Virus record (IMG/VR): IMGVR_UViG_3300043466_002653
Span: 1-54,275 of that record
Length of the DNA stretch: 54,275 nt
Direction: 5' to 3' (one strand)
DNA from: a virus
Lineage: Duplodnaviria; Caudoviricetes
The stretch's first letter is position 1; each line of letters opens with the position of its first letter. A program made the translations under genes and the position numbers. This document shows positions 2,880 to 43,919 of this stretch, one piece after another. The notes beneath the pieces are model-generated. The model did no database searches and had not been told where the DNA came from. It saw nothing but the letters and a program-made list of their open reading frames with translations.

Positions 2880-3044
2880 TACTCTATCATACCCTCTGCC
2901 ACTGACAAAAGGTGGCGGGTAGCCAAGACCTGACCGTTTAAATGAATAACAGAATCCCTATCCCCGTCAGGTAGGAGATCATAGTCCTGTTCAAGACTAA
3001 GTAGATGAATCTTTATATATTCTTTGAGTGTGTTTATGTCCATA

Positions 3045-3323
3045 CTATAAAGTATACGGGTTCGTGTTGATTTTTACAACTTCACGGGGTGTGACCTTGC
3101 TCACATCTAAAGAGTCTATGGCTATACCTGTCTGACTCTTAAACTCATCTAACATTTCTATAGTGTCAATGGTTGGAGATACCGTGGCATCTTCCCAAGA
3201 GATTAATGTCACATGGGATGAGGCCTGGCAAATGCAGGCGGGATCAATCTCAGGACTAACACACGCAGTAACCTCTATAAGAGCATCACAGGTATTACAT
3301 ACATAGATATACTTAGTCCACAT
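3045..3323 (-). CDS. hypothetical protein (CxxC..CxC)
   Basis: ORF coupled to the upstream stop (TAATG). Confidence 0.6.
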   Translation of the reverse strand: MWTKYIYVCNTCDALIEVTACVSPEIDPACICQASSHVTLISWEDATVSPTIDTIEMLDEFKSQTGIAIDSLDVSKVTPREVVKINTNPYTL

Positions 3324-3481
3324 TAGTCAAAGTACCCTTCTGCCCATAGTCCATCAAGGAATTCTGTTGCCTTATATAGGTGGTCGTGTAGCCAGGGATC
3401 ATTATTAAAATCAACGGTAGTTATAACAGAATGAATAGCCATGGACATATTATCTAAATCTTCTTTAGTATAGCCTAACAT
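3323..3481 (-). CDS. hypothetical protein
   Basis: Start MLGYTKEDL at 3481, coupled to the upstream stop, GGGAGAG SD. Confidence 0.6.
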   Translation of the reverse strand: MLGYTKEDLDNMSMAIHSVITTVDFNNDPWLHDHLYKATEFLDGLWAEGYFD

Positions 3482-3645
3482 TACTCTCCCCAATATTGTT
3501 GGATAAGCCACATGCATTGATGAAGAGTGCAATCGCAATCTCCACCGTTCATGTTTTCCATAAATTCAAAGTGCGATAGGTTGTCCTCATAAATTTCCAT
3601 TACGAGTTCTGATATTGTGTATGGTTTGTATGTTGTTTGGGTCAT
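3481..3645 (-). CDS. small hypothetical protein (54 aa, not in ORF track)
   Basis: MTQTTYKPYTISELVMEIYED...; leaderless start after the 3652-3680 promoter. Confidence 0.6.
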   Translation of the reverse strand: MTQTTYKPYTISELVMEIYEDNLSHFEFMENMNGGDCDCTLHQCMWLIQQYWGE

Positions 3646-3651
3646 GTATTA

Positions 3652-3680
3652 ATCATAGCATTTTAGGGGATAAATGTCAA
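3652..3680 (-). promoter_or_regulatory. sigmaA-type promoter
   Basis: TTGACA-17 nt-(TGC)TATGAT. Confidence 0.8.
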
Positions 3681-3781
3681 CTATCGTAATCAAAAAATGT
3701 GGGAAATGTTATTTGATCATCTTAATAGATATTATCAAAAATGTCAAATGGTACAAAACGGACATGCCCCTAGGCGATTTG

Positions 3782-3855
3782 CGAAGTGTACGGGACTTGA
3801 ACCCGTGATCTCTACCGTGACAGGGTAGCGCATTCACCAACTATGCTAACACTCC
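3782..3855 (-). tRNA. tRNA-Asp (GTC)
   Basis: Cloverleaf: acceptor GGAGTGT/ACACTTC, D arm GCAT/ATGC, anticodon arm CTACC-CTGTCAC-GGTAG, T arm ACGGG-TTCAAGT-CCCGT, discriminator G; CCA not encoded. Confidence 0.95.
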
Positions 3856-3859
3856 ATGC

Positions 3860-3886
3860 GAGCAGTTTTCAATCATGCTCAGGATT
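3860..3886 (-). ncRNA. repeated H-type pseudoknot motif, copy 1
   Basis: AATC-CT-GAGCA-T-GATT-GAAAAC-TGCTC. Confidence 0.7.
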
Positions 3887-3892
3887 TTTTTG

Positions 3893-4909
3893 TTATGCTA
3901 AAGACATAACATTTTGCACAACTTTTAGCAAACGATTTTTTTCTGCATTGATAGCAGGGTCAAAACCACTTGCAGATGCAAGGATTGACTCGTTAGAACC
4001 ACCACGAGCAGAACGGTACCAGTCAAGGCGTTCTGTAAGTGCATTGAAAGCACCCCACGCATTACCAGCAATCATACCATTGAACTCGCCTGTGTAAATA
4101 TCATTTACCATGTCGATTTTATTTTCCCATTTCTTGAAAGCACCCTTAGAGTCTTTTTCAGGCTTAGGATATGAGGCGAGCAAAATGTCATTGAATGACT
4201 TAGCACTTACCTCTTTTTCAATCATAGCCTTTGCCATGATGTCGAATTCGTCCATGTACTTATTAGCCATGCCAAGAGTTTCACGAGCAATCGCAACTTT
4301 ACCAGATGCGGTCTGAGTGTGACGAATCTTGAATGATTGCTTGATGCCATTCTTTTTCTTGATTGAACCAAGAGCAAGATTGAGAGTGTTAGCGCATACA
4401 ACACGAACAGGTGTAATGCTTGCTTGAATTGCAATCGAACCGTCATGTGATGTGTTGATGAGCAAATAAGTTTTGACCTTATCTGCAACACCTGAAGGGT
4501 CAAGAATTGTTTCACGCTCTAATGCAAGAGCACCGAATACAACACGACCACCCTTGATAGAGCCAGCGGTTTCCCAACGACCACCACCGTCAAGGATATT
4601 ATCACCGAATGAGAATAAATCTTCATTCTGCATTACATGGTAACGCTCACCCACGACACCAAGAATGTCGGTCTGAGAATTATCTGTAGGGTTAGTGCGA
4701 AGAACATACTGATAGTTCTTGTCGCTTGTGAGATGTGTAGGGGTTTCCAAATCTTCCAGACGAACATTCCAACCATTGAGGCTTGCTGCCTCTAACATTT
4801 CTGAGGTTGATTTTTCTTCTGTAAATACGGTACCCAATCCATGCCAAGCGGGTTCACGGAAAGATGCGAATGATGCCTTGCCGTTTTGTGTTTCGATGTC
4901 ATGTGCCAT
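3893..4909 (-). CDS. DUF932/DUF945 (TIGR03299-like) phage protein
   Basis: PAWHGLG, WETAGSIKGG, SHDGS, TPVRVVCANTL, IRHT and WGAFNALTE motifs. Confidence 0.9.
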   Translation of the reverse strand: MAHDIETQNGKASFASFREPAWHGLGTVFTEEKSTSEMLEAASLNGWNVRLEDLETPTHLTSDKNYQYVLRTNPTDNSQTDILGVVGERYHVMQNEDLFSFGDNILDGGGRWETAGSIKGGRVVFGALALERETILDPSGVADKVKTYLLINTSHDGSIAIQASITPVRVVCANTLNLALGSIKKKNGIKQSFKIRHTQTASGKVAIARETLGMANKYMDEFDIMAKAMIEKEVSAKSFNDILLASYPKPEKDSKGAFKKWENKIDMVNDIYTGEFNGMIAGNAWGAFNALTERLDWYRSARGGSNESILASASGFDPAINAEKNRLLKVVQNVMSLA

Positions 4910-4941
4910 GAGTTATTTTCCTTTTCTGTTGTTGAATTCTA

Positions 4942-4970
4942 AGTATAGCAGGACGGACTGACATATGCAA
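4942..4970 (-). promoter_or_regulatory. early promoter, TGTCAG class
   Basis: TTGCAT-A-TGTCAG-N7-TGC-TATACT. Confidence 0.8.
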
Positions 4971-5057
4971 ATCAAGATAGTTAGGCATAGACAAATTGGA
5001 CAATTTCCAGCGTGATCTTAATCACACATCTTAAATGGGCGTGTCGGCTTGACAAAG

Positions 5058-5066
5058 TTATCCACA
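5058..5066 (+). promoter_or_regulatory. DnaA box
   Basis: Perfect TTATCCACA in an intergenic spacer. Confidence 0.6.
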
Positions 5067-5094
5067 GGCCCCCTAGGAAATTTCAATAAAGAAT

Positions 5095-5123
5095 GAGCAG
5101 TTTACGTGGCCATGCTCAGGGCC
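5095..5123 (-). ncRNA. repeated pseudoknot motif, copy 2
   Basis: GGCC-CT-GAGCA-T-GGCC-ACGTAAAC-TGCTC. Confidence 0.7.
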
Positions 5124-5169
5124 CTTACCCAGTTTAGAGACTTTTGGTATGTCTATTAGTAGCCCCCTA

Positions 5170-5598
5170 CTAAAAATCAATTCTATCAACTGTAGCGCTA
5201 AGCCAAGTGATGTTGTCAGAATTATATGACACTGATTCAAAATCAATATCATTTATAATTGATTCTGTATCTTCGTCGTGAGGTACCTGCAGTGTTAGGT
5301 TGTAAGTTACAGTAACTTCAACTTCAACTTCTTGTATTAGTTCAAATCCGCAGATATTAGAAATTGCTTCGGCTTGTGATTCTGTTATATCTCCGTCGCG
5401 CAATTCGGAAAGAGTCCACTCTTGCATGTCGTTACGCATTTTGTTTATCTCTCCAGCGGTTGCATAGTCACGCTGTGTGATACGCTGAATGTGCTCATCT
5501 TTACTTTTGACTATTTCTTCAAGATTAGTAATTTGTCCTTGAAGAAATTCTGTTGTTGCAGTTATTACTGTTGGATATGATGTTTCCATGCGGTCCAT
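5170..5598 (-). CDS. hypothetical early protein
   Basis: 142-aa ORF, AGAAAGAGG SD, own promoter at 5630-5658. Confidence 0.75.
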   Translation of the reverse strand: MDRMETSYPTVITATTEFLQGQITNLEEIVKSKDEHIQRITQRDYATAGEINKMRNDMQEWTLSELRDGDITESQAEAISNICGFELIQEVEVEVTVTYNLTLQVPHDEDTESIINDIDFESVSYNSDNITWLSATVDRIDF

Positions 5599-5659
5599 AG
5601 GGGCCTCTTTCTATTTGTTGGTTAGTATAATTATATCGCGGGGTACTGACAAATGCCAG

Positions 5660-6157
5660 TTACCAAGATGATGAATAGTAGAATGATAGATTATCTACTT
5701 CAGGTAAAGCAAAGATACGCTTCAACTGAGTAACGGTACTTTCTAAATCTCTCCAATACCATTCATCAATATCTGTGCCACCAAAGAAAAATCCTGCTTG
5801 TGGTGGTAGTAGTGTTGGGTCCTTGGATTCAAGTGCGTGTTCACAGATAACCATTAGTTCTGTTAGTTTATCTTGTGGAACATAGTACTCACCGCAGTTG
5901 TCCTCACCCTTTTGAATATTAGTAACAAACCAGTTATGTATCTGATTAGCCTTGCGCCAATAGGCACAGGTAACCTCTACGGTTGCTCCATAAATATCTG
6001 TAGCAACATCCGTGAGTTGAGTCAACTCTAATAGGTCATTGAATTTTGGATAGACGGCTTCGGGTGAGTTGTAAGATAACTCATCATTGGACTGTAGCGC
6101 TTTCCAGTTTATTTTTTCTAAGTGCTTTCGTGCGTTGAGATACATATCTAATCCCAT
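5660..6157 (-). CDS. conserved phage hypothetical protein (MGLDMY / YWRKANQIHNWF family)
   Basis: Characteristic N-terminus, GFFFG motif and YYSSSW end. Confidence 0.85.
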   Translation of the reverse strand: MGLDMYLNARKHLEKINWKALQSNDELSYNSPEAVYPKFNDLLELTQLTDVATDIYGATVEVTCAYWRKANQIHNWFVTNIQKGEDNCGEYYVPQDKLTELMVICEHALESKDPTLLPPQAGFFFGGTDIDEWYWRDLESTVTQLKRIFALPEVDNLSFYYSSSW

Positions 6158-6184
6158 TGGGGCTCCTTCTTGTTGTTTATACTA

Positions 6185-6213
6185 AGTATAACAGGGGGGT
6201 CTGACAAATGCAA
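6185..6213 (-). promoter_or_regulatory. early promoter, TGTCAG class
   Basis: TTGCAT-T-TGTCAG-ACCCCCC-TGT-TATACT. Confidence 0.8.
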
Positions 6214-6225
6214 TTCCCTTGCGGG

Positions 6226-6252
6226 GAGCCTTTTTGGATCATACTCAGGATC
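6226..6252 (-). ncRNA. repeated pseudoknot motif, copy 3
   Basis: GATC-CT-GAGTA-T-GATC-CAAAAA-GGCTC. Confidence 0.6.
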
Positions 6253-6310
6253 ATCATCTCAGGCATACCCACGCATCATGGCCTGGGGCTTAGCAGAGAT
6301 GAAACTTAGT

Positions 6311-6337
6311 AAGCAGTTTAGCGACATACTCAGGTCG
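6311..6337 (-). ncRNA. repeated pseudoknot motif, copy 4
   Basis: CGAC-CT-GAGTA-T-GTCG-CTAAAC-TGCTT (G-U pairs in stem 2). Confidence 0.7.
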
Positions 6338-6376
6338 TTTATTCCCGTGTACCTCAATTAGAGGTGTATAGGAAAG

Positions 6377-6799
6377 TTATAGGTAACGGGCTACCGCTTG
6401 ATAAGTTGATGTGGAAACTGTTTCCTCATCTGTCATCTTTAGGATACGAATTGCGTTGCCAATTTCCTCTTTTTGGTTATTGTATTCGTGCTTGTGGATT
6501 GTATCAAAATCCTTCTCAGGCTCAGCAGGGAAATTAGAATCACTACCGACAATATCAAAATCAACATTGAGAGTCTTGTTCCATGAACGATAGTTCGTTC
6601 TGATGTTCTCAGCCTTTGAGAAATGGGCAATAGCATAGTTTGCTAATTCTGTCTGCCATGCCTTGTATGCTTCTTGATACTTTGCTTCTTTTGCTTCTTG
6701 TGATACAAAGTCAAGTTCTAACTTATTTAGTGATTGTGTGAGTGCGTCAATTACACGCTGAGTAGGTATTTTTACTGAGATTGCTTTTCCTCTTGCCAT
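6377..6799 (-). CDS. hypothetical early protein
   Basis: 140-aa ORF, helical N-terminal half. Confidence 0.8.
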   Translation of the reverse strand: MARGKAISVKIPTQRVIDALTQSLNKLELDFVSQEAKEAKYQEAYKAWQTELANYAIAHFSKAENIRTNYRSWNKTLNVDFDIVGSDSNFPAEPEKDFDTIHKHEYNNQKEEIGNAIRILKMTDEETVSTSTYQAVARYL

Positions 6800-6846
6800 C
6801 TGTTTTTCTCTTTTCTGTTGTGGGATATTTGTTAGGGGGTTGTGTT

Positions 6847-6873
6847 GAGCAGTTTTGTATCATGCTCAGGATA
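6847..6873 (-). ncRNA. repeated pseudoknot motif, copy 5
   Basis: TATC-CT-GAGCA-T-GATA-CAAAAC-TGCTC. Confidence 0.7.
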
Positions 6874-6897
6874 GTTGCTTTAGCGTTATTGCTAAAC

Positions 6898-7062
6898 TTA
6901 CTTTGCCGTCCAAGTTGTGTAACGGGCTGAACCATTTACATCTAACTTGACTCGTACATTACCATTAGCCTGTGGTGTGATTTCTTGGATTGTTCCAGTT
7001 ACCTTTGACTTCTGAGTTGTGTAGAGGTCGCCGACCTTGTATGTTGCTGTTGCTACTGACAT
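6898..7062 (-). CDS. small beta-rich protein (54 aa, not in ORF track)
   Basis: MSVATATYKVGDLYTTQKSKVTGTIQEITPQANGNVRVKLDVNGSARYTTWTAK; TTGACA-18-TATACT promoter at 7106-7135. Confidence 0.7.
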   Translation of the reverse strand: MSVATATYKVGDLYTTQKSKVTGTIQEITPQANGNVRVKLDVNGSARYTTWTAK

Positions 7063-7408
7063 TATTTTCTCTTTTCTGTTTAGTGGTTATTTTTTCTTAT
7101 ACCTAAGTATAACATTTTGTAGATAAAAATGTCAAATTGGAATCTGACATTTCTCACATACTGAGATTACTTTGGGGTCTTGATTTATGTTACGCTATTT
7201 AGTTATAGTATAATTTTAGCAGAAAAATGTCATAAATGCAAATCCTGGGGGGGTTCTGGGGTGTGACCTTAATTACATCTTAAAGGCGTGTCTAAACTTG
7301 ACAAATCAACATTTTTGCCCTAGGGCCCCTTAGTTACAAGGGACTTGCAAAAATAGAATATAAAAATATTGCAGTTAGAAATAAAATAATTACATCACCC
7401 ATTACATC

Positions 7409-8149
7409 TCATTTCTTAGTCGCAGAAAAAACTATGTCTGCTTTAGAGTATACACACAATGAGCAAGAAACGCAAGCCGAGCCATTAGTTGAGATAAGTG
7501 GAATTTGCTTATTGTTTTCAGGACACTTAGCGCCAGGTCTTCCCGTTAGTGCTTTCATGTCTGCCTGGCCTATTTCAAAATTCTTGGCAAGGTATGCTAA
7601 CTTTATGCCGTGATCCATTTTGAGTTCAATACCCTCATCCTTATTCTCGCTATCAGTAGAATAGTATAGTGAGAGATTAGGTTGGTCTTTTAGCATAAGT
7701 GCTGCAGACTTTACACGAGTGTATACCCAGAATTGAACATCACGGTAATCCATGATTACTTGCTTCCATGCATAGGCATATGTATCATTGAAGAAGTCAC
7801 CGTCCCAGTGAATACGGAATAGCATAGGTGCGTCTTTCTTTGCACAATCTTTGATAAAATCTACTATCATTTCTTTTAGTAGTGCGACCATAGTTTCATA
7901 GTCTGCGTCTTTTAGCAAGGCCCAGTTATGGAGCAGATTAGTTTTTACTCCTGGGAATATCTTTTCCAATTTGCCTGCGTAGCAAACAGTTTCGCAGATA
8001 GACGTTGCACCAGGACATGAATAGGCCTTTCCTGCAGGTAGTCCGAAGGTATTGGCAATTGCGGCTTGCTTTCCATTTTTTGTGACAAGGTTAGCCACCT
8101 TTCTATCGTTGGAGCGTTTTAGTTTTAGAGTAATTGTATTAGTAGTCAA
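7409..8149 (-). CDS. GP88-like Fe-S/radical-SAM-like phage protein
   Basis: FGLPAG..CPGATSICETVCYA, FRIHWDGDF, FWVYTR and C-terminal CxxCxxC; TTG start uncertain. Confidence 0.75.
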   Translation of the reverse strand: MTTNTITLKLKRSNDRKVANLVTKNGKQAAIANTFGLPAGKAYSCPGATSICETVCYAGKLEKIFPGVKTNLLHNWALLKDADYETMVALLKEMIVDFIKDCAKKDAPMLFRIHWDGDFFNDTYAYAWKQVIMDYRDVQFWVYTRVKSAALMLKDQPNLSLYYSTDSENKDEGIELKMDHGIKLAYLAKNFEIGQADMKALTGRPGAKCPENNKQIPLISTNGSACVSCSLCVYSKADIVFSATKK

Positions 8150-8327
8150 GTCCGAGGCTCATTTCTAATGCGATATCTTCATTATAGGTTGCAGACATTT
8201 CTTCAAGTACGCAATGGGTGCATTTTTCTTCATACTCATCTACTGAGTTTTCTTTACATTCAGGGCAGGTTGTTGCATAGTATTCGTCATAGTTTTCGTC
8301 ATAGAATTCATCTGCGATATTTCCCAT
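8139..8327 (-). CDS. small Zn-ribbon protein
   Basis: CPEC/CTHC, GGAGA SD, promoter at 8358-8379. Confidence 0.65.
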   Translation of the reverse strand: MGNIADEFYDENYDEYYATTCPECKENSVDEYEEKCTHCVLEEMSATYNEDIALEMSLGLDY

Positions 8328-8523
8328 GGGGCTATTCTCCTTTTTGTTGATATTTCAATTGTAGCATTTGGGTCTGACATTTCTTACGGTTGTAAGTTTT
8401 TTTAGAGGGCACAGAAGATGCAGCGTTGCTACGGCGTAATTCCATAAGCCTACGTAATTCCTCTGGATTTTTCTTCATAGAATAATCTTAGCATACATGG
8501 ATAAAAAATGTCAAATCTTAAAA

Positions 8524-8539
8524 TGTGATAAATCTCACA
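8524..8539. promoter_or_regulatory. CRP/GlxR-type site
   Basis: Perfect TGTGA-TAAATC-TCACA preceded by AAA. Confidence 0.75.
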
Positions 8540-8603
8540 CCGACACGCTAGGTAAATTGCCTAGGCATTTTTGTGCGGGGAAGCACACAAAAAATACTTT
8601 TAT

Positions 8604-8849
8604 TTATTCTTCTTCATGTTCTACGAATACATATAACTTGAATACATGTTCGTAGTTACATTCAAATACATCTTCCTCACCATATTCATTACGATAAGTA
8701 ATTGTATAATTATCTCCAGTAGAATCATCTACAATTGATATTACATCAACAATAGAGCCTTCAATCTCTACGAGATCATCTTCCATTAGTTGTGCTGGCG
8801 TGAGTAAATCTGCATATACCAATTCCATAAGGTTTATTGTATCAGACAT
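8604..8849 (-). CDS. hypothetical acidic protein
   Basis: 81-aa ORF in an operon. Confidence 0.65.
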   Translation of the reverse strand: MSDTINLMELVYADLLTPAQLMEDDLVEIEGSIVDVISIVDDSTGDNYTITYRNEYGEEDVFECNYEHVFKLYVFVEHEEE

Positions 8850-8993
8850 TTAGATCCCTTCATTGTCAAAATCAAGTAAGACTTCATTACAGTTTTCGCA
8901 TTCAATTGCGATATTTTGCTGGTCACCATAGATAGCAACATCTAAGGAATGTCCGTAGTGATCTGCTAATTCGTTATAGGTTTGTACGCTCAT
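8850..8993 (-). CDS. small hypothetical protein (47 aa, HxxH/CxxC)
   Basis: MSVQTYNELADHYGHSLDVAIYGDQQNIAIECENCNEVLLDFDNEGI, coupled to both neighbours. Confidence 0.6.
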   Translation of the reverse strand: MSVQTYNELADHYGHSLDVAIYGDQQNIAIECENCNEVLLDFDNEGI

Positions 8994-9277
8994 TAGTCCT
9001 CCCATTCAGGAAGCCAAAATTCCAAGTGGTGTTGTTCAATAATAGCCCTTGCAGGTGCTTGCGTACTTCCACGATATAGAATCTGAAAGTCACCAACCTT
9101 TGGCATGTCAATCATGCGGTCATAGTCCTCATCATAGTATGCGTCAATTGCTTCAATGCAAGGGGCTACCATTTCTGCGGGTACGGGAGGATAGTGATTA
9201 CCCTTCAAGTGATATAGAATCTGAGTTTCTAAGTCCAATACTGTATCCTGTATTCCTAACGCTGTTACACTTCCCAT
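8993..9277 (-). CDS. hypothetical protein
   Basis: HLKGNHYPPVP motif; ATG at 9277 with GAGGAG SD. Confidence 0.7.
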   Translation of the reverse strand: MGSVTALGIQDTVLDLETQILYHLKGNHYPPVPAEMVAPCIEAIDAYYDEDYDRMIDMPKVGDFQILYRGSTQAPARAIIEQHHLEFWLPEWED

Positions 9278-9431
9278 TATTCGTTCTCCTCTGATTCGTC
9301 TACCCATTCTACATATTCGTCATTATCTATTTCCATTAGGTTGGTATAGATTATTAGTTGTCCATAGTTATCCTGTTGTATATCATAGTCTGGCGCTATC
9401 TTTGCAAGTGCCGTTCTGAATTCATATCCGT

Positions 9432-9647
9432 TCATACTTTTACTACAACCCTTCCGTCACGATAAAATAATTTAGTATACATTTTGCCTGTTGGCGTTGA
9501 GATATTGACTGTTCGATATTCGTTAGCCATTCCCCAGTCGGTGAATCGGAAAAAACTTTCCCATGCACCAAACTCATTTTCATAGCGTTGTGTCCAATGA
9601 GGAGCGTGTCCGTCATATGCACTTGTTACTGCGTATTCGTATTCCAT
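9432..9647 (-). CDS. hypothetical protein
   Basis: 71-aa ORF, GAGG SD. Confidence 0.65.
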   Translation of the reverse strand: MEYEYAVTSAYDGHAPHWTQRYENEFGAWESFFRFTDWGMANEYRTVNISTPTGKMYTKLFYRDGRVVVKV

Positions 9648-9950
9648 TAGTTAGCCTCTTTCGTTGTAAATAATGCGCCTTCATTTAGTAAGCCCAATTC
9701 AATATTGAATAATTCATCGGGTGTTGCAGACTCTAAGTCTACCCACCCTGCACCGTCTTTGTCAATTCTAAATATCTCTATATATCCCATTATTGTTCCT
9801 CACAATTCTTTGTATAATCAAACTCACAATAGTAACAACCCATGAATTCTAAGTGTTCTTCACAATAGTACTTGAATTGACTTTCATCGCAACAAAAAAA
9901 CTGTTCATCTGATACTTCATAGAATTCTGTTTTATCAATTATATTCAACA

Positions 9951-10166
9951 TTATTCACTTACCTTTACTGCTACTGTGCGATAGGTTCTGCGACCAAAAT
10001 TATTGTATCCGCTATTAGGTGCAACCTCTACAAGATAAGTTTCGCAACCTTGATACCATATACCCTTTGGGTGTTTTTCTGCTGAGGTTATCTCACCTTG
10101 CAGAGTGCGTGAGTTGTAATTTGTTCCTATGAGTAGGTCTTGTATTGTATATACATTTGCTGACAT
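9951..10166 (-). CDS. hypothetical protein
   Basis: 71-aa ORF, GAAAGAGG SD, promoter at 10200-10221. Confidence 0.7.
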   Translation of the reverse strand: MSANVYTIQDLLIGTNYNSRTLQGEITSAEKHPKGIWYQGCETYLVEVAPNSGYNNFGRRTYRTVAVKVSE

Positions 10167-10269
10167 TTGCCAACCTCTTTCTTTTTGTTTATATAAATAA
10201 TCTTAGCATATGCGACTGACATTTTCACATTACTTGCCAGTAATTCCACATAGTAAGACGCTCAAACTC

Positions 10270-10285
10270 TGTGAGAAAAATCACA
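10270..10285. promoter_or_regulatory. CRP/GlxR-type site
   Basis: Perfect TGTGA-GAAAAA-TCACA. Confidence 0.75.
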
Positions 10286-10297
10286 TTCAACGTAAGG

Positions 10298-10318
10298 TTA
10301 TCCACAGCCTGTGGACGA
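10298..10318. promoter_or_regulatory. inverted DnaA box pair
   Basis: TTATCCACA-gcc-TGTGGACGA. Confidence 0.6.
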
Positions 10319-10347
10319 CACGCTAGATGATCGCCTAGCGAAAATTT

Positions 10348-10375
10348 GAGCAGTTTGAAATCTTGCTCAGGATTT
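10348..10375 (-). ncRNA. repeated pseudoknot motif, copy 6
   Basis: AAATC-CT-GAGCA-A-GATTT-CAAAC-TGCTC. Confidence 0.7.
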
Positions 10376-10386
10376 ATTTTTATTTT

Positions 10387-10572
10387 TTATTTTTCTGCAA
10401 GTTCTTGTATATAACATGCATTTTTGAAAGTCATTGGATTGAATCTTGGATTGTCAGATAAAAACATATCTGAAAAATCATAGACCAAATCCTCAAAAGC
10501 AAATTTTTCAATTAGACTTGAATAATTGCTTAGAATTTCAGCAGTTGCGACATAGTCTTTTCGTGTCATCAT
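10387..10572 (-). CDS. conserved phage hypothetical protein
   Basis: MTRKDY...DNPRFN..F..AC motif. Confidence 0.75.
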   Translation of the reverse strand: MMTRKDYVATAEILSNYSSLIEKFAFEDLVYDFSDMFLSDNPRFNPMTFKNACYIQELAEK

Positions 10573-10573
10573 T

Positions 10574-10780
10574 TTATTTTGCCACCTTTAGAATTGCGTA
10601 TGAGCCATTTTTATTTATTTCATCTATAGCAGGCTGAATCATTGGTGCAAGCAATTCTTTTAGCATACCTTCAAGCAATTCAATACGCATTGACTCTGAG
10701 ATAGCCATAAGTTGTTTCCCTACTGGGTGAGTTTCGTCTACTTCTGTGATGAACTTTAGATTGTGTTCTACTTTTACCAT
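10574..10780 (-). CDS. hypothetical protein
   Basis: ATG at 10780 with AAAGGA SD. Confidence 0.65.
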   Translation of the reverse strand: MVKVEHNLKFITEVDETHPVGKQLMAISESMRIELLEGMLKELLAPMIQPAIDEINKNGSYAILKVAK

Positions 10781-10921
10781 TTTTATCTGTCCTTTGTTAG
10801 TTGTTTGTTTTTGAAAGTTGCACACATTGGCATTGTGTTATATTTATTGTATCAGTACCGACTGACACGATAGCAAGGGTATCGCAATTATCGCATATCC
10901 ACATTCCCGCAATCTGTTGCA

Positions 10922-11107
10922 TTATAGAGTTGCCTTTCCTCTAAGTGTTCCACGAACGCCGAGAGCGTCGCAAGATACTTTTACCGCAACGCCTACAGGG
11001 AGTTGAGTTGGATAAGTTGAGATGAATTGAGCAACCGCACCTTTTGAGGGCATGTCAATCTTTTTTGTTGAACCTGAAAAGGTTTCAAGGATTATAGTGT
11101 AAGTCAT
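10922..11107 (-). CDS. hypothetical protein, paralog of 11808-11984
   Basis: TFSGSTK...VSCDALGVRG. Confidence 0.75.
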   Translation of the reverse strand: MTYTIILETFSGSTKKIDMPSKGAVAQFISTYPTQLPVGVAVKVSCDALGVRGTLRGKATL

Positions 11108-11217
11108 TTAGTGACTTCCTTTCGTAGTTTGTTTATATTATCTATTATAGCATTTTGGACTGACAATATCAAATCCAAATTCGGACATTTAGGACATTAG
11201 GAATGTGACGTTGGTCA

Positions 11218-11397
11218 CTATCGAGAGATAGTCCATTTTGACCACATATCCATACGGTCACCGTCAAATTCTAACCAAAATCTTTCGATATTAGTTTCGC
11301 ATACCTCACAAAAGGTATATTGCTCATCTCTTACATTTGAGATAGCAGGGATATGAGGTGTATGTTCTTGACATACTGTAGTTTTTAGTGAATTCAT
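11218..11397 (-). CDS. small Cys-containing protein, paralog of 13162-13347 (not in ORF track)
   Basis: MNSLKTTVCQEHTPHIPAISN..DEQYTFCEVCETNIERF..WSKW. Confidence 0.75.
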   Translation of the reverse strand: MNSLKTTVCQEHTPHIPAISNVRDEQYTFCEVCETNIERFWLEFDGDRMDMWSKWTISR

Positions 11398-11508
11398 TTT
11401 GAATTCCTTTCTTTATTGATAACCTTTATCAATTTTCTTTATACGAGAAGTATAGCATAAAAATGTCAAAAAGTCAAATCGACACGCCGTAAATCAGGGG
11501 AATAATCG

Positions 11509-11552
11509 TGTGATTCGTATCACATTAGTTATGCACATCACCCTGTGGATAA
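11509..11552. promoter_or_regulatory. CRP-type site plus inverted DnaA box pair
   Basis: TGTGA-TTCGTA-TCACA (11509-11524); TTATGCACA (11529-11537) and TGTGGATAA (11544-11552). Confidence 0.7.
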
Positions 11553-11807
11553 CTTTTGCCTAGCGTTTTTCATTCGCCTTTCACGAATAAAAAAGATCCA
11601 CTTAGTAAGCAAATCATAGAGAACCAAAACAATGCGCTACCGCTTGAAAAAAAGTTATTCATTAAATATCAAATCCTAAAAAATAAAATAAAAAATTAAA
11701 TAACATTATTAGTGAAAGAATATTATTTTCAATCACCGCTGGATCTGTTGCACTATCTAACCAAGTTAAATATTCGTTAATGCTTTCGATTAGTCCGTGT
11801 ATGTTCA

Positions 11808-11984
11808 TTATTTGTTTCCTTTCAAGTGACCTGATATTCCAAGGGCATCGCAAGATACCTGCAACACTACTGATTTAGGTAGTGCATTACTGAGTGCGCT
11901 CATGTACATAGCGACATCTAACGGGGTATTGAAAGGCATAGCCTTAGTGCTACCATTGAAGGTAGTTAGTTTTAGTGTTATCAT
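11808..11984 (-). CDS. hypothetical protein, paralog of 10922-11107 (not in ORF track)
   Basis: MITLKLTTFNGSTKAMP...VSCDALGISGHLKGNK. Confidence 0.75.
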   Translation of the reverse strand: MITLKLTTFNGSTKAMPFNTPLDVAMYMSALSNALPKSVVLQVSCDALGISGHLKGNK

Positions 11985-12130
11985 TATTTAGACTCCTCTA
12001 CATGAAACGCATTGAATTTAGCGATTTCGTTTTCGCTAAGTGGGTATAGTGATTTGTTTAGAGCGAATACCGCTCTCATCTCATCTTCTGCCTCTACGAC
12101 ATAAGATATAAGCACATTATATTTATTCAT
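11984..12130 (-). CDS. small hypothetical protein (48 aa)
   Basis: MNKYNVLISYVVEAEDE..., TAATG-coupled at both ends. Confidence 0.6.
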   Translation of the reverse strand: MNKYNVLISYVVEAEDEMRAVFALNKSLYPLSENEIAKFNAFHVEESK

Positions 12131-12294
12131 TATTTTACTCCTTTATATAAAAAGTCCCAAGCCTTACGGCAAATTAGTATGCTTTCGCAATTATCACAAC
12201 AGATAGAGCCGTGAGGGTTTAGGTTTATATCATATGCATCTACATATGCTATTGTGTTTCCGCAAACGGAATCAAGTGGATAGAGTGTGCTCAT
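12130..12294 (-). CDS. small Cys-rich protein, paralog of 12998-13162 (not in ORF track)
   Basis: LDSVCG...NLNPHGSICCDNCESILICRKAWDFLYKGVK. Confidence 0.75.
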   Translation of the reverse strand: MSTLYPLDSVCGNTIAYVDAYDINLNPHGSICCDNCESILICRKAWDFLYKGVK

Positions 12295-12533
12295 TAGTTA
12301 GCACCTTTCTTTAGTACGGACATGATAGCGACATATCGCTGAGCGATTATTACCGCTTTAGGATTCAGGGTAGAGTTGAATCTACCTTGTGAATAGTCGC
12401 TTGGGTATTTGTTAGCAATACGCTGAGCGATACGAGTAGGGAGAACATTGGTAGGGCGTGGAGAGTATCCACCTGCCTCTAAACCAAATTCGAGGGCAAT
12501 ATCCTTGCGGATACTTTCGTTATAGTGAGTCAT
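12294..12533 (-). CDS. hypothetical protein
   Basis: 79-aa ORF, AGAAAGGAG SD, promoter at 12588-12609. Confidence 0.7.
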   Translation of the reverse strand: MTHYNESIRKDIALEFGLEAGGYSPRPTNVLPTRIAQRIANKYPSDYSQGRFNSTLNPKAVIIAQRYVAIMSVLKKGAN

Positions 12534-12643
12534 ATTTGACTCCTTTCTTTAGCGGAATTCTTTACCGCTTGTTTTCTTTATATATACATTATAGCAGGGG
12601 GGTCTGACATATTGAGGGGTACAAATTATACTAAAACGGACAT

Positions 12644-12675
12644 TGTGAGATTAGTCACATGAGATGTAGGTCACA
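12644..12675. promoter_or_regulatory. tandem CRP-type sites
   Basis: TGTGA-GATTAG-TCACA directly followed by TGAGA-TGTAGG-TCACA. Confidence 0.7.
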
Positions 12676-12800
12676 TTTTCCAGGGGAATTATAACATTTA
12701 CATAACAATATTAAAACTATCGGTGTGTCGACTTGACACGAGCCCTAGTAGATCACCTAGCAAATTTTGCATAGTGTTTAGTTATGCAAAACTTTTTTAT

Positions 12801-12998
12801 TTATCTTTTTATCATTTCTTTTGCATTTTCTAAAATAGATAATTGTTCACGAAACGATTTTGCAATTTCGTTTTGTTGTTCTTCTGTAAGTGTTGTCCAC
12901 ACATAACCAAGAAGATAGTGTGTGCCACTATCAGCATTGCCATAGCGAATTTCTGTAGACATTTTGCGAATGTCTGCAAGTAGTTGCATATCTTTCAT
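12801..12998 (-). CDS. hypothetical protein
   Basis: ATG at 12998 with AAGGAG SD. Confidence 0.65.
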   Translation of the reverse strand: MKDMQLLADIRKMSTEIRYGNADSGTHYLLGYVWTTLTEEQQNEIAKSFREQLSILENAKEMIKR

Positions 12999-13162
12999 TA
13001 TTTTACTCCTTTGTATAAAAAATCCCATGCCTTACGGCAGATTAAAATTGAGCGACAGTTATCGCAACAGATAGACCCGTTAGGGTTGAGGTTGAAGTCA
13101 TATGAATCAACGAATGTATGTGTCTTTCCACATACTGAATCAAGACGAATTAGTGTAGTCAT
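12998..13162 (-). CDS. small Cys-rich protein, paralog of 12130-12294
   Basis: LDSVCG...GSICCDNCRSILICRKAWDFLYKGVK. Confidence 0.75.
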   Translation of the reverse strand: MTTLIRLDSVCGKTHTFVDSYDFNLNPNGSICCDNCRSILICRKAWDFLYKGVK

Positions 13163-13347
13163 TATTCTGATACCTTCCATTTAGACCATGGAGCATATGG
13201 GTTTGACGAATCAGCCCAACGCTCGATATTTTGTTCACACTCTGTGCAGAATGTGAATTGCTCATCGAAACACATATTGTATGTGTTAGAGATAGCGGAC
13301 ATTTGAGGTGTATGCGTTTCGCATACTATTGTATTTAGTGAATTCAT
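13162..13347 (-). CDS. small Cys-containing protein, paralog of 11218-11397
   Basis: MNSLNTIVCETHTP..AISN..DEQFTFCTECEQNIERW..WSKW; AGAAAGGAA SD. Confidence 0.75.
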   Translation of the reverse strand: MNSLNTIVCETHTPQMSAISNTYNMCFDEQFTFCTECEQNIERWADSSNPYAPWSKWKVSE

Positions 13348-13363
13348 GTTGAATTCCTTTCTA

Positions 13364-13567
13364 TTAGTTAAAGTGATAGTTGCAGATATTAGTTTCTGCA
13401 TTGTTGATAAGGACAAGGTGAGATGAAACAGGAGATGTGCAATCTGCAATCTCACACTTTCCACCTAAATATGAATCGTGGATATCGCAACCATATCCAT
13501 CGCAATATGAATCTTCACACTCAATAGACCAATCGGCTTGAGGTGTTATGTCAATTAGTGAAGTCAT
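13364..13567 (-). CDS. small Cys/His-rich protein
   Basis: 67 aa, six Cys, AGAAAGGAAG SD, promoter at 13623-13644. Confidence 0.65.
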   Translation of the reverse strand: MTSLIDITPQADWSIECEDSYCDGYGCDIHDSYLGGKCEIADCTSPVSSHLVLINNAETNICNYHFN

Positions 13568-13974
13568 TTTGACTTCCTTTCTTTAGTTAGGTTTACTTCT
13601 TTTTCAACCTTCTATATATAGAAGTATAGCAGGGGGGTCTGACATCTACTGAGCGGTAACTATGACAAAACGGACATTTTGATTTGTGATGTACGCCACA
13701 AATTATGACAAGGCTCTGACCTGCACTTATAGGGCGGGGGTCGAATGTGATGTACGCCACAGGGTGGGCTGTAGTGTATAACAATTTGATAACTTTTATG
13801 CGGGTACTGGCGTGTCGACTTGACAAAATCGCTAGGAGATATGTGCTCACTATATTTTTTAGGTTTTATATACATAAACACGTATCATACATCTGAACAA
13901 ATTATTCAGATTTTAGGCTATTTGGGTTTTACAAAATTTTTCAGATTTTCCACGGGATAGGGTATAATAGATCT

Positions 13975-14181
13975 ATGGGAATATTAGAAAACTTCGAAAA
14001 CGCCTGGGATATAGAATTACAAGAGAAACCAGAGTATGAATCAAAACCTATGCCAGTTACTGACAATATGGGTAGAGAAGTATTTTGGGAAGATATGGGA
14101 AGACCAGAAGGTGGATGGACAAAAGGTATTGCCTCCTATGATGCTTCGACTGTAGATTTATTTTTAAAGGCTCAAGAATGA
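13975..14181 (+). CDS. hypothetical protein
   Basis: Leaderless start 6 nt after TATAAT. Confidence 0.7.
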   Translation: MGILENFENAWDIELQEKPEYESKPMPVTDNMGREVFWEDMGRPEGGWTKGIASYDASTVDLFLKAQE

Positions 14182-36639: not shown

Positions 36640-37380
36640 ATGAATTATCATACTTTGCCAGAAGCAAATATTAACGATGAAAACTCTAACCACTGGTTTA
36701 CAAAAGATAGATCAGAAACAGCATCAAACAGAATTCCTAATAGACAACTAGATGAAAATATTGTTGTTGAAAATCTTGGACTAGGTTTGCATGTCTACCA
36801 TGATACATTTTCTTTAGATGATGCCAACAGATATATAGAAACTCTTGAGTCAAATTTAGGAAAAAATGGAAAATATAGTTGGTCAGAAGCACAAGTAACA
36901 AACTCTTCAACGCCAATTAAAAAGGCAAGAGACTGCGTAGACTTTAAATATAAACAAGAAAATTTAGGGCCTAAAAATGATACTAATTCAGAATTAATAG
37001 ATTTGCACGAAGAAATATATCAAAAACTTAAGTATTGCATTGATGATTATGCAAAGTACTGGGGTATCAATGTAGTATATTATGAGGCCTTTAACTTTGT
37101 TAAGTATGAAGGAGAAGGCACACACTTTAATATTCATGCAGACCATGGACCAGCCTACAACTGTACAGTGTCTGCTGTAATATATATCAACGATGATTAT
37201 AAAGGCGGGGATTTAAAATTCCCACGATTAGACAATCTTATTATTAAACCAAGAGTAGGAGATATAGCGGTATTTCCATCAAACTATATTTATGAACATG
37301 CCTCACTACCAATGGAGTCAGGAACAAAGTACTGTGTAGTTGTTATGACAGATATTAATGAGATAGGTCATAAGAAATGA
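36640..37380 (+). CDS. 2OG-Fe(II) oxygenase, P4H-like
   Basis: HAD, YINDDYKGG, FPSN, HAS and KY motifs. Confidence 0.9.
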   Translation: MNYHTLPEANINDENSNHWFTKDRSETASNRIPNRQLDENIVVENLGLGLHVYHDTFSLDDANRYIETLESNLGKNGKYSWSEAQVTNSSTPIKKARDCVDFKYKQENLGPKNDTNSELIDLHEEIYQKLKYCIDDYAKYWGINVVYYEAFNFVKYEGEGTHFNIHADHGPAYNCTVSAVIYINDDYKGGDLKFPRLDNLIIKPRVGDIAVFPSNYIYEHASLPMESGTKYCVVVMTDINEIGHKK

Positions 37381-38153
37381 GCATAAAATCTAATCTTGTT
37401 ATTTTTAAATCATACAGACCATGGCTAAATAAAAAAAGTTTATCTATTCCAGAACCAACACAGAATGTAATTCCTGAGTGGTATAAAGATGCAGATAGAT
37501 TTGCAAAAATGCCAAATGGAGAATATTGGAAAGCAACAAAAGAAGTTTGTCCATTTCCAAAAGAAGGAACAACAGATGATTTTGGTAAAATTCCTACATG
37601 GAAAGCATGTCCAGCAATCCTGGATGCATTTACAACAGGATATATATTTAAAACCCCATGCGATTTAATATTTTTTAAAAACAGTCAGGGAGTTATTAAT
37701 GTTAAAATTGAAGATGAAAAATATAAAGATTTTTGTACTCAAAGGCCTCCAATGCCACAGTTTGAACATCCCAAAGGATATTATCAAAACCATTTTGCCT
37801 GGAATTCAATTTGGGGTTTAGAGTTACCAGAAGGCTATAGCACATTGCTTATGACCCCAATGAATAGGTTTGATCTTCCTTTTTTAAATACTACTGGTGT
37901 CGTTGATTCTGATAAAGTCCATCTACTTGGAAGTTTTCCATTTTTTATTGTAGATGGATGGGAAGGAACTATTCCAGCAGGAACACCATATATGCAAGCA
38001 CTTCCATTTAAAAGAGAAAACTGGGAACATCAAATAGACATCCTGGATCAGTCTAAAATTTATGATAAAGTTAATAATAACGTAAAGTTTTACCGTCAGC
38101 CTGACGGCGGGGTATATAAAAATAAAATTTGGTCAAGAAGAGAATATAGATAG
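37377..38153 (+). CDS. hypothetical protein, DUF6065-related
   Basis: IPEWYK, KACPAILDAFTTGY and GTPYMQALPFKRE motifs. Confidence 0.6.
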   Translation: MSIKSNLVIFKSYRPWLNKKSLSIPEPTQNVIPEWYKDADRFAKMPNGEYWKATKEVCPFPKEGTTDDFGKIPTWKACPAILDAFTTGYIFKTPCDLIFFKNSQGVINVKIEDEKYKDFCTQRPPMPQFEHPKGYYQNHFAWNSIWGLELPEGYSTLLMTPMNRFDLPFLNTTGVVDSDKVHLLGSFPFFIVDGWEGTIPAGTPYMQALPFKRENWEHQIDILDQSKIYDKVNNNVKFYRQPDGGVYKNKIWSRREYR

Positions 38154-38162
38154 GGATAAACT

Positions 38163-39547: not shown

Positions 39548-39549
39548 AC

Positions 39550-40221: not shown

Positions 40222-40222
40222 A

Positions 40223-42499: not shown

Positions 42500-42509
42500 G
42501 GGGAATAAA

Positions 42510-43913: not shown

Positions 43914-43919
43914 GAAAAT

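Follow-up and report, generated by a model that had tools for sequence, protein, structure and literature searches.

Putative host-regulator-dependent early promoters in the gene spacers of an uncultured lake phage

Promoters that depend on PafBC have so far been known as a cellular DNA-damage device. As outlined in the excerpts of two articles, these promoters of Actinobacteria (RecA-NDp) share a 22-nt layout with the motif tGTCgg(N10)tA(N3)T, in which a GTC element at -28 to -23 is combined with a sigma-A -10 element and usually no -35 is present (PMC8635444; PMC11804915), and PafBC, positioned between sigma-A region 4 and the DNA, acts by 'sigma adaptation' (PMC8635444). An excerpt of the same source also treats the middle promoters of phage T4, at which a MotA box replaces the -35 and AsiA together with MotA bring about 'sigma appropriation' (PMC8635444). 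Here we analyze nine spacers between small genes in the IMG/VR record IMGVR_UViG_3300043466_002653, a 54,275-bp stretch of phage DNA (Caudoviricetes) with 38% GC that is rated 49% complete; the whole record is called the window below. The initial annotation, made from the letters of the sequence, had read these spacers as mosaics of sites for host global regulators that possibly form a transcription-factor decoy or a sensor array for the state of the host. We regard it as rather probable, judging from sequence comparisons, that the spacers are early promoters dependent on host regulators, which probably make the first phage genes responsive to the state of the host rather than merely soaking up host proteins.

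Indeed, the 22-nt layout recurs along the window. There are 12 matches to TGTC[AG]G-N10-TAnnnT, of which 11 lie on the minus strand, co-oriented with the genes, between positions 2886 and 13644 (ten of them are listed in Table 1), whereas spacings of N8, N9, N11 and N12 give 0-4 matches. In 199 loci (the window and 198 related phage loci, 2.6 Mb), the N10 spacing yields 1718 matches as compared to 52 for N8, 31 for N9, 18 for N11 and 97 for N12, and a scrambled core produces no spacing peak in the related loci; these counts, like all others taken over the relatives, are phylogenetically non-independent. With the transcription start placed by rule, TGTC[AG]G sits at -28 to -23. The non-redundant promoter-upstream regions extracted from the 199 loci number 780, 407 of the TGTCAG class and 373 of the sigma-A type. 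In the former the commonest base of the -35 region does not exceed 44% at any position, and positions -32 to -29 are A-rich. Compared with the cellular promoters described in the published excerpts, the putative phage promoters differ in that 11 copies stand in one gene cluster of a virulent-looking phage, with phased CRP sites apparently added, and in that position 5 of the element is mostly A (TGTCAG) and some copies bear a -35-like TTGCAT. Apart from these, six promoters of the window are near the sigma-A consensus (TTGACA, 17–18 nt, TAnnnT) and have a TG extension. The promoters themselves, including the 11 of PafBC type, were absent from the initial annotation. A literature search combining 'PafBC' with 'phage' and covering titles and abstract openings of the papers listed yielded no report of PafBC-type early phage promoters coupled to CRP sites; a 2025 paper on pafBC and mycobacteriophage resistance, cited in an excerpt of PMC12848934, may bear on the novelty of this arrangement.

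Measured from gene stop to gene start, the nine spacers comprise 2,207 nt, or 4% of the window. They were compared with 1000 dinucleotide shuffles of themselves in a test whose figures (observed count versus shuffle mean) are post hoc, since the motifs had been chosen after reading the window sequence. The palindrome TGTGA-N6-TCACA is found 4 times versus 0.00, or 10 versus 0.10 when up to one mismatch is allowed, the DnaA box TTATCCACA 3 times versus 0.02, CGTGTCG 5 versus 0.05, CGGACAT 4 versus 0.16, CCTAG 14 versus 2.2, CTAG-N8-9-CTAG 3 versus 0.03 and ATAAC-N6-ATAAC 2 versus 0.01. None of the 1000 shuffles matches the observed count of any of these eight long forms. The short forms are weaker, the observed count being reached in 4 (GACAC), 38 (GGACA) and 12 (bare CTAG) of the 1000 shuffles. 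When the whole window is counted, 11 of the 12 CRP-like sites (at least 9 of 10 bases), three of the four perfect DnaA boxes and six of the seven copies of GCGTGTC fall in the spacers. The motifs are thus where the initial annotation had placed them and appear selected. It had also stated that each spacer combines the same parts; the parts are present, but none of them occurs in all nine spacers. A CRP-like palindrome is found in eight (perfect in four), CTAG in eight, a GCGTGTC-type element in seven (in one of them as the variant GTGTGTC), GGACAT in five, a DnaA box in three and ATAAC-N6-ATAAC in two.

As a prior-free check, 8-mers were counted in the 780 promoter-upstream regions. The top words are GACACGCC (113 regions versus 0.7 expected), TTATCCAC (93 versus 3.9), AATGTCCG (86 versus 2.2), TTGTCAAG (60 versus 2.9) and CRP half-sites. 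As to CTAG, the tetranucleotide occurs 57 times in the whole window, where about 190 copies are expected from base composition, and 11 of the 57 lie within the 2.2 kb of the spacers; at the CTAG position the relatives have other GC-rich palindromes (CCCGGG, CACGTG).

Because the genes lie on the minus strand, the spacers have to be read on that strand. Read in this way, a spacer starts with the preceding gene's stop codon, a hairpin flanked by runs of A and U and a GC-rich stretch containing CTAG, continues with optional DnaA boxes, with GCGTGTCG alone or as TTGTCAAG-N-CGACACGCC and with one or two CRP palindromes, and ends, often after ATGTCCG, with the promoter, a ribosome-binding site rich in purines and the start codon. 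The varying order previously ascribed to the parts is therefore only partly retained, as they mostly follow the succession terminator, CTAG, DnaA box, GCGTGTC, CRP, GGACAT and promoter. Every site-bearing spacer also has a co-oriented promoter. Folding supports the hairpins in three of the six regions tried (z-scores of -2.9 to -4.2); a consensus terminator scan did not pick up the inter-operon hairpins.

The conservation of this organization was analyzed upstream of the gene for a DUF932 protein (3893–4909), for which 110 unique orthologous upstream sequences were compared. The 22-mer is kept in 102 of them and a CRP site with at most one mismatch in 85 (47 perfect); ATGTCC is found in 62, a perfect DnaA box in 56 (two or more in 33, often as TTATCCACAGGTTATCCACA) and GACACGC in 22. 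The spacers display 13 different combinations of modules, with the distal modules varying. So many combinations at one orthologous position indicate that modules have been exchanged around a constant core promoter. Confinement of the motifs to the region of small genes is seen in a complete relative (G001, a 118-kb record), in which all five perfect CRP sites and six of the nine PafBC-type 22-mers are located within 110.7–118 kb plus 0.7–3.3 kb. The nine spacers are probably the control regions between the operons of a leftward-transcribed cluster of small, presumably early genes.

At class I promoters of Escherichia coli, CRP is centered at -61.5, -71.5, -82.5 or -92.5. The phage has in common with these lac-type promoters and with the CRP/GlxR regulons of Mycobacterium and Corynebacterium the palindrome TGTGA-N6-TCACA placed upstream at steps of about 10 bp; it differs in that the centers form a ladder based on -54.5, offset upstream by about 3 bp, in that the sites seem to serve PafBC-type promoters, and in having an off-phase class at -69.5. 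The window contains five perfect and seven one-mismatch CRP palindromes. Eight sites were mapped relative to the promoters, with centers at -53.5, -70.5, -74.5 (twice), -76.5, -83.5, -84.5 and -137.5, seven of the eight being within -53.5 to -84.5; three one-mismatch spacer sites (7143, 7262 and 12660) were outside the distance mapping. Among the relatives, 174 core CRP palindromes are found in the 407 TGTCAG-class regions versus 29 in the 373 sigma-A-type regions. For the analysis of phasing, 1669 TGTCAG-class promoters were grouped by their downstream coding sequence into 192 clusters, 63 of which have a CRP site; this clustering is imperfect, since one cluster contains 805 of the 1669 promoters. 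Single-linkage clustering by upstream words was dropped, as it lumped together 524 of 563 promoters. The modal CRP center is -54.5/-53.5 in nine of the 63 families, -64.5 in 12, -75.5 to -73.5 in 17 and -85.5 to -83.5 in eight. Forty-six families are thus no more than 1 bp away from -54.5, -64.5, -74.5 or -84.5, that is, on 12 of the 111 positions scanned. A 10-bp ladder of this kind corresponds to the face-of-helix geometry of an activator, and together with the centers in the window it contradicts the previous view that the sites are too far upstream, or in the wrong orientation, for promoter control. In spacer 9, two CRP-like 16-mers 61 bp apart are identical and have different flanks, suggesting that the CRP site was duplicated or selected on its own.

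Counterparts of the phage motifs were looked for in a candidate host family, reached via one 1.5-Mb Actinomycetota metagenome-assembled genome (MAG) that contains a mis-binned phage contig and served as an entry point only. The resulting set of 31 genomes (1.0–2.2 Mb each, about 44.6 Mb in total; 44–56% GC in the fetched stretches), in which rhodopsin genes are present, suggests an acI/Nanopelagicales-like family of small freshwater Actinomycetota. As far as PafBC is concerned, adjacent pairs of WYL open reading frames (ORFs) of about 280–376 residues are found in 28 of the 31 genomes. A CRP found in the family is an ORF of 233 residues with cNMP_binding and HTH_Crp_2 domains, whose best solved relatives are the Crp/Fnr chains 3i54 and 3d0s (E 6e-79). 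We take both chains to be Mycobacterium tuberculosis CRP. The helix-turn-helix stretch GASRETVNKALADFA of the host protein is identical to chain 3i54 in the alignment, so that its recognition helix is that of the Mycobacterium protein. Concerning DnaA, TTATCCACA occurs 297 times in the family versus 212 for the control, and clusters of it, some in tandem 10 bp apart, flank dnaA in the two genomes inspected. WTGTCAG-N10-TAnnnT is found 105 times versus 73 for the control; many of these host sites read TGTCAGTGG, TGTCAGACC or TGTCAGCCC, the same variants as in the phage, and a LexA-box-like palindrome follows directly after two of the 12 sites inspected.

The two remaining elements also have counterparts in control regions of this family. 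Of 20 copies of GGCGTGTCG in six of the genomes, 15 lie outside any open frame of at least 450 nt. The GGCGTGTC element occurs at recA: GCGTGTC is present upstream of this gene in six of the seven regions, with the exact PafBC geometry in three, and a LexA-box-like palindrome adjoins in all seven, two of the regions having been assigned by their shared leader only. Other copies of GGCGTGTCG are situated about 40 nt upstream of the -35 of promoter-like sequences; in the one genome followed, rpsL, rpsG and fusA come after such a copy, and further copies precede a small conserved gene (rpsL, the recA leaders and the small conserved gene were identified from translations read by eye). A location of GGCGTGTCG upstream of rRNA operons was considered and rejected, as an Rfam comparison gave no match and the genes that follow were recognized by eye as resembling rpsL, rpsG and fusA; of the two stretches fetched for this purpose, one (G008) came from the opposite side of the site. 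The motif of WhiA is GACAC, which is contained in CGACACGCC. However, the host copies inspected are not at recognizable division genes and those of GGCGTGTC/GACAC are at recA, at the rpsL operon and at the small conserved gene, so that the link to cell division proposed earlier gains no support from the copies inspected. The ATGTCCG repeat is represented by ATGTCCNNNNTGYCC, with 32 copies versus 14 for the control, 12 of which read ATGTCCG[AT]TTTG[TC]CC, the form found in the phage. Among ten loci inspected, five copies precede a gene for an extracytoplasmic function (ECF) sigma factor by about 100–130 nt and two precede a rhodopsin gene by about 200 nt; one example of either type was verified with Pfam, the rest were assigned by eye, and NCBIfam named the ECF sigma factor to superfamily level only. 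The 15-mer is present in 9 of the 31 family genomes versus 9 of 301 in a phylum-wide sample (8 of 300 without G005, with one match in the unpublished G263), the control giving 5, a distribution that ties the phage vocabulary to the candidate host clade. The description of the motifs as host global-regulator sites is thereby supported, as they match the candidate-host CRP consensus, DnaA boxes of oriC type, GGCGTGTC at recA and the ATGTCCG repeat. The likely hosts are dominant, hard-to-culture freshwater Actinomycetota, so that the phage spacers would provide a compact catalogue of the key cis-elements of these bacteria, including two elements with unnamed regulators, GGCGTGTCG and the ATGTCCG repeat (ATGTCCGATTTGTCC).

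Two repeats were noticed in the host-family sequences. A 15-kb contig of one MAG (G025:C20) carries at about 5650–5760 at least six TTTGTCC/TTTGCCC repeats with a spacing of 9–10 bp, ending in the 15-mer ATGTCCGTTTTGTCC; this array may belong to a mobile element or to another phage using the same site. In G011:C1, at about 325014–325061, a 33-bp unit with ATGTCCGATTTGCCC is present in about three tandem copies upstream of a host ORF.

The motifs, their enrichment, their geometry, their conservation, their confinement to the small genes and their host counterparts are observed at the level of sequence; from these we infer the binding proteins, where and when transcription starts, and the clade to which the host belongs. 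If the spacers are early promoters dependent on host regulators, each of them would close one operon with its hairpin and open the next with its promoter. Host RNA polymerase with sigma-A would transcribe the early region, and host PafBC, activated by single-stranded DNA (ssDNA), would adapt sigma-A to the -26 element. Initiation would be stimulated by CRP from its sites at -54 to -85 and modulated by DnaA together with two unnamed host factors. The sigma-A-consensus promoters would act first and the PafBC-type ones once ssDNA appears. As host regulators would drive initiation, early expression would be coupled to the DNA-damage, energy and replication state of the host.

Several points weigh against this explanation. 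According to an excerpt of PMC11804915, PafBC activity requires ssDNA, and the scheme presupposes ssDNA early in infection. The transcription starts were set by a rule, 7 nt past the -10. The promoter of the DUF932 gene and that at 6185–6206 have a -35-like hexamer TTGCAT at 17 nt, unlike the described PafBC class, and may be hybrids. The CRP site is off the ladder, at -69.5, in six of the 63 families. On the host side, the perfect CRP palindrome is found in two of the 31 genomes (one copy each) versus six for the control, and GTGA-N6-TCAC occurs 233 times versus 815 for the reversed control, a 3.5-fold rarity that may mean that fortuitous CRP sites are avoided, or may be an effect of codons. 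Since there is no surplus of CRP palindromes, the host would use few such sites or degenerate ones, and the phage sites are unusually perfect. The 9-mer CGACACGCC is not enriched genome-wide in the family (139 versus 130). Moreover, the same phage gene is also found in MAGs labelled as six other phyla or classes, and the host family is a presumptive one. Finally, Streptomyces phage Wakanda, a cultured relative with which the window shares gene order (see below), has neither a PafBC-type nor a CRP array (one match at N10, no perfect CRP site). A gene-free region of 1.4 kb in its record contains, at about 118.9–119.1 kb, four CGGACAT within 90 bp, three perfect DnaA boxes (inverted and tandem) and GACAC; it is a candidate for an origin or for a lineage-specific (master) control region. 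CGGACAT beside DnaA boxes in the absence of the arrays fits a phage-lineage or origin role for these two motifs.

The last point leads to the possibility that proteins encoded by the phage read some or all of the motifs, either a MotA-like binder at -26 or an initiator acting on CGGACAT iterons beside DnaA boxes. T4 middle promoters likewise have an element near -30/-26 in place of the -35 and an adaptor that links it to sigma region 4. T4 supplies its own adaptors. Here no candidate phage adaptor was found and a host adaptor fits the sequence: in a Pfam search of four complete relatives, HTH_Crp_2 and cNMP_binding gave no match at E <= 0.1, and neither WYL nor Sigma70_r4 was found above the family cut-off, the sub-threshold hits in G001 being one for WYL (E 0.027, 11.8 bits) and one for Sigma70_r4 (E 0.018, 12.2 bits). 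A novel binder could nevertheless hide among the small early ORFs, as 19 of 20 compared with Pfam have no family (DUF4241 being the sole match). The lack of a genome-wide enrichment of CGACACGCC in the host family speaks in the same sense, as does Wakanda, a phage of a very different host, in which CGGACAT lies beside DnaA boxes and which shares with the window a 19-mer (3750–3768) that includes the CGGACAT at 3759–3765. Against phage readers, identical words stand in control regions of the host, on large contigs of its chromosome (at recA, the rpsL operon, ECF sigma and rhodopsin genes). TGTCAG-N10-TAnnnT promoters also occur in the host family itself, some adjoining LexA-box-like palindromes, and the CRP and DnaA sites follow the consensus of the host proteins. 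Readers encoded by the phage seem doubtful to us; they may be relevant above all for CGGACAT and the DnaA boxes.

A decoy, the other half of the earlier proposal, would mean that the sites mainly sequester host CRP, DnaA, PafBC and other regulators, an effect that would grow with phage replication and could coexist with promoter control. The numbers lend themselves to such a view: 54 kb of phage DNA contain five perfect CRP palindromes and 29 of the 31 host genomes contain none, GTGA-N6-TCAC is present about 5 times per Mb in the host genomes versus 5 times in the 2.2 kb of spacer, and G001 has eight perfect DnaA boxes versus 5–22 per host genome. No constant spacing from a promoter is seen for one perfect CRP site (3090) or for the distal GGCGTGTCG and DnaA boxes. 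A sponge, however, has no need for CRP sites in 10-bp register with the -10. The sites are also few per spacer rather than arrayed, and they are not independent of promoters, one of which, co-oriented, is present in every site-bearing spacer. The phasing of the CRP sites and the link to promoters thus leave the decoy unsupported, whereas the sensor half of the proposal is retained, and sequestration as the main role is quite unlikely; as perfect CRP sites in the phage outnumber those of the host, titration could arise as a side effect. It is still less probable that the modules are recombination substrates or copies of one promoter cassette, with distal motifs devoid of regulatory function. 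Orthologous spacers do differ by whole modules, and one module, a 17-mer, recurs without change in at least 119 viral contigs, but among the spacers of the window it is the motifs that are conserved and not the sequence between them, the motifs match independent host elements, and the CRP sites are phased.

A more extensive version of the host-regulated promoter hypothesis can be formulated, which we put forward as speculative and rather unlikely in its entirety. Lake actinophages of a lineage abundant worldwide would run their early programme via PafBC sigma adaptation, with each operon gated by a different mix of host inputs (cAMP-CRP, DnaA, the GGCGTGTCG factor also acting at recA and rpsL, and a factor shared with ECF sigma and actinorhodopsin genes), and the phage DNA would also strip regulators from the host. 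If this were true, the phage would read DNA damage, energy or light, and the replication state of a streamlined host, and since the latter is almost without perfect sites, replicating phage DNA would strip the regulators from the chromosome. The likely hosts are dominant, hard-to-culture freshwater Actinomycetota, so that the phage spacers would provide a compact catalogue of the key cis-elements of these bacteria, including two elements with unnamed regulators, GGCGTGTCG and the ATGTCCG repeat (ATGTCCGATTTGTCC).

The modules other than CRP were also located in the promoter-upstream regions of the relatives. GCGTGTC has its maximum at -45 and the reverse complement at -53, the two covering about -53 to -39, with other copies being distal. 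ATGTCCG peaks at -61, -52 and -68/-69, with a period of about 9. The DnaA boxes have a distal and broad distribution and are found in both orientations. Clusters of DnaA boxes that regulate or titrate DnaA are known from E. coli datA, lambda pR and the P1 origin. The phage likewise has perfect TTATCCACA boxes of host-origin type, often tandem or inverted; in contrast to these clusters, a spacer holds between one and three boxes, whose distance and orientation upstream of the putative early promoters vary. ATAAC-N6-ATAAC possibly represents degenerate DnaA boxes. The stoperators of cluster A mycobacteriophages consist of one asymmetric site that is bound by the phage's own repressor. They resemble the present motifs as short sequences repeated in many gaps of an actinophage; here several distinct motifs are involved, which match host elements. 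The reverse complement of the GCGTGTCGACTTGACAA module includes the 17-mer present in the viral contigs mentioned above. Two assignments were rejected by eye: the GGCGTGTCG sites of the window are not PafBC promoters themselves, none of them having TAnnnT after N10, and ATGTCCG is not the -35 of an ECF promoter, as no common -10 follows the copies at the host sigma genes, at the host rhodopsin genes and in the phage. The features of the window are listed in Table 1.

Table 1. Positions of promoters, regulator-site motifs and hairpins in the window (class names are sequence-based; centers are relative to the rule-placed transcription start).
Feature	Position	Strand	Remarks
PafBC-type 22-mer	2886–2907	-	TGTCAGTGG...TATGAT; end 7 nt before ATG at 2879, so that the transcript may be leaderless
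PafBC-type promoter	4942–4963	-	spacer 2, DUF932 gene; TTGCAT -35-like hexamer
PafBC-type 22-mer	5630–5651	-	upstream of ORF 5170–5598
PafBC-type promoter	6185–6206	-	upstream of ORF 5660–6157; TTGCAT -35-like hexamer
PafBC-type promoter	8358–8379	-	upstream of ORF 8139–8327; without upstream modules
PafBC-type promoter	10200–10221	-	spacer 5
PafBC-type 22-mer	10846–10867	-	within operon, upstream of ORF 10574–10825
PafBC-type promoter	11144–11165	-	spacer 6
PafBC-type promoter	12588–12609	-	spacer 8; TGTCAG-N10-TATAAT, without -35 match
PafBC-type promoter	13623–13644	-	spacer 9; TGTCAG-N10-TATACT, without -35 match
Two sigma-A-type promoters	3652–3680 and 3719–3747	-	spacer 1
Sigma-A-type promoter	7106–7135	-	spacer 3; TTGACA-18-TATACT
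Second sigma-A candidate	7213–7242		spacer 3; TTTGCA-18-TAAAAT
Sigma-A-type promoter	8485–8514	-	spacer 4; TTGACA-18-TAAGAT, TG extension
Sigma-A-type promoter	11449–11477	-	spacer 7; TTGACT-17-TATACT, TG extension; GCGTGTCG abuts -35
CRP palindrome, 1 mismatch	5011–5026		center about -83.5
CRP-like palindrome, 1 mismatch	7262–7277		spacer 3
CRP palindrome, perfect	8524–8539		center about -53.5
CRP palindrome, perfect	10270–10285		center about -84.5
CRP palindrome, 1 mismatch	11204–11219		center about -74.5
CRP palindrome, perfect	11509–11524		center about -74.5
CRP palindromes, abutting	12644–12675		perfect 12644–12659 (center about -70.5); 1 mismatch 12660–12675
CRP palindromes, two identical, 1 mismatch	13685–13761		13685–13700 (center about -137.5) and 13746–13761 (about -76.5), minus-strand reading
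DnaA box TTATCCACA, perfect	5058–5066	+	
DnaA box, perfect	10298–10306	+	followed by inverted partial copy
DnaA box pair	11529–11552		TTATGCACA (+) and perfect minus-strand box (11544–11552)
GCGTGTCG then CTTGACAA	5039–5055	+	minus-strand reading TTGTCAAG-N-CGACACGC
GCGTGTC...CTTGACAA module	7286–7304	+	
GCGTGTCG	8541–8548	-	fused to CTAG
GCGTGTCG	10316–10323	-	fused to CTAG
GCGTGTCG	11480–11487	-	at about -45, directly upstream of -35
GCGTGTCGACTTGACAA module	13810–13826	+	
CGGACAT	3759–3765	+	ATGTCCG on minus strand, about -50
CGGACAT and GGACAT	11182–11197	+	direct repeat, period 9; TGTCC centers about -57 and about -48
CGGACAT	12637–12643	+	TGTCC center about -59
CGGACAT	13671–13677	+	TGTCC center about -58
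ATAAC-N6-ATAAC	12691–12706	+	second copy 13778–13793
Terminator-like hairpin	8565–8597	-	between A and U runs; z -4.2
Terminator-like hairpin	11566–11594	-	z -2.9
Terminator-like hairpin	12762–12794	-	z -3.7

As for the phage itself, small ORFs on the minus strand occupy the window from position 1 to about 15.5 kb. Plus-strand genes start at 16.8 kb, with family matches that include a tail-fibre protein, a ribonucleotide reductase (RNR) and a portal protein. The portal protein and a GP88-family protein share 46–53% identity with their counterparts in mycobacteriophages and in Streptomyces phages of about 130 kb, and the gene order RNR, large protein, portal is that of Wakanda (Stanwilliamsviridae). 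A megablast of positions 3000–14000 against cultured phages gave zero matches. The phages are widespread: the DUF932 protein has 422 relatives in the viral collection, some of them in records of 108–118 kb rated 99–100% complete, and 24 lake or freshwater DNA runs, with no RNA run among them, contain at least 88% of the sampled words of 3600–13599. WhiB is encoded by all four complete relatives examined, which identifies an actinophage lineage and upholds the earlier assignment to actinobacterial hosts. These data suggest an uncultured lake phage of about 110 kb that would infect low-GC Actinomycetota. The Planktophila phages of 39 kb described in an excerpt of PMC10202952 are unrelated in size and GC content.

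The RNR gene was dropped as a pointer to the host, since the ten loci returned by a search are the phage gene itself and not a host homologue. Being 83–96% identical to the phage gene, these loci, which carry the MAG labels Chitinophagaceae, Flavobacterium, Bifidobacterium, Gammaproteobacteria, Luteolibacter, Actinomycetota, Acidimicrobiaceae, Beijerinckiaceae and Paceibacteria, were taken as phage contigs binned into MAGs; the occurrence of contigs of this lineage in MAGs labelled as at least seven unrelated phyla or classes is probably due to bin contamination.

Some further features of the window may be mentioned. An Rfam scan yielded a tRNA as the sole match, a single minus-strand tRNA-Asp (GTC) at 3781–3855 that separates the DUF932 gene from spacer 1; 34 tRNAs are annotated in Wakanda. 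On the plus strand, eleven back-to-back ORFs of 188–290 residues (36640–45064) lie between the tail-fibre region and the RNR gene. A conserved element of 24–26 nt, CCTGAGCA-N8-10-AAACTGCTC, is present in four minus-strand copies (3860–3883, 5095–5120, 6847–6870 and 10348–10371), each located directly 3' of a stop codon and one immediately before the tRNA-Asp; AAACTGCT is also enriched among the relatives. Its hairpin is weak, with 6 bp and z-scores of -2.4 and +0.4 for the two copies folded, and the element may be a processing or termination signal.

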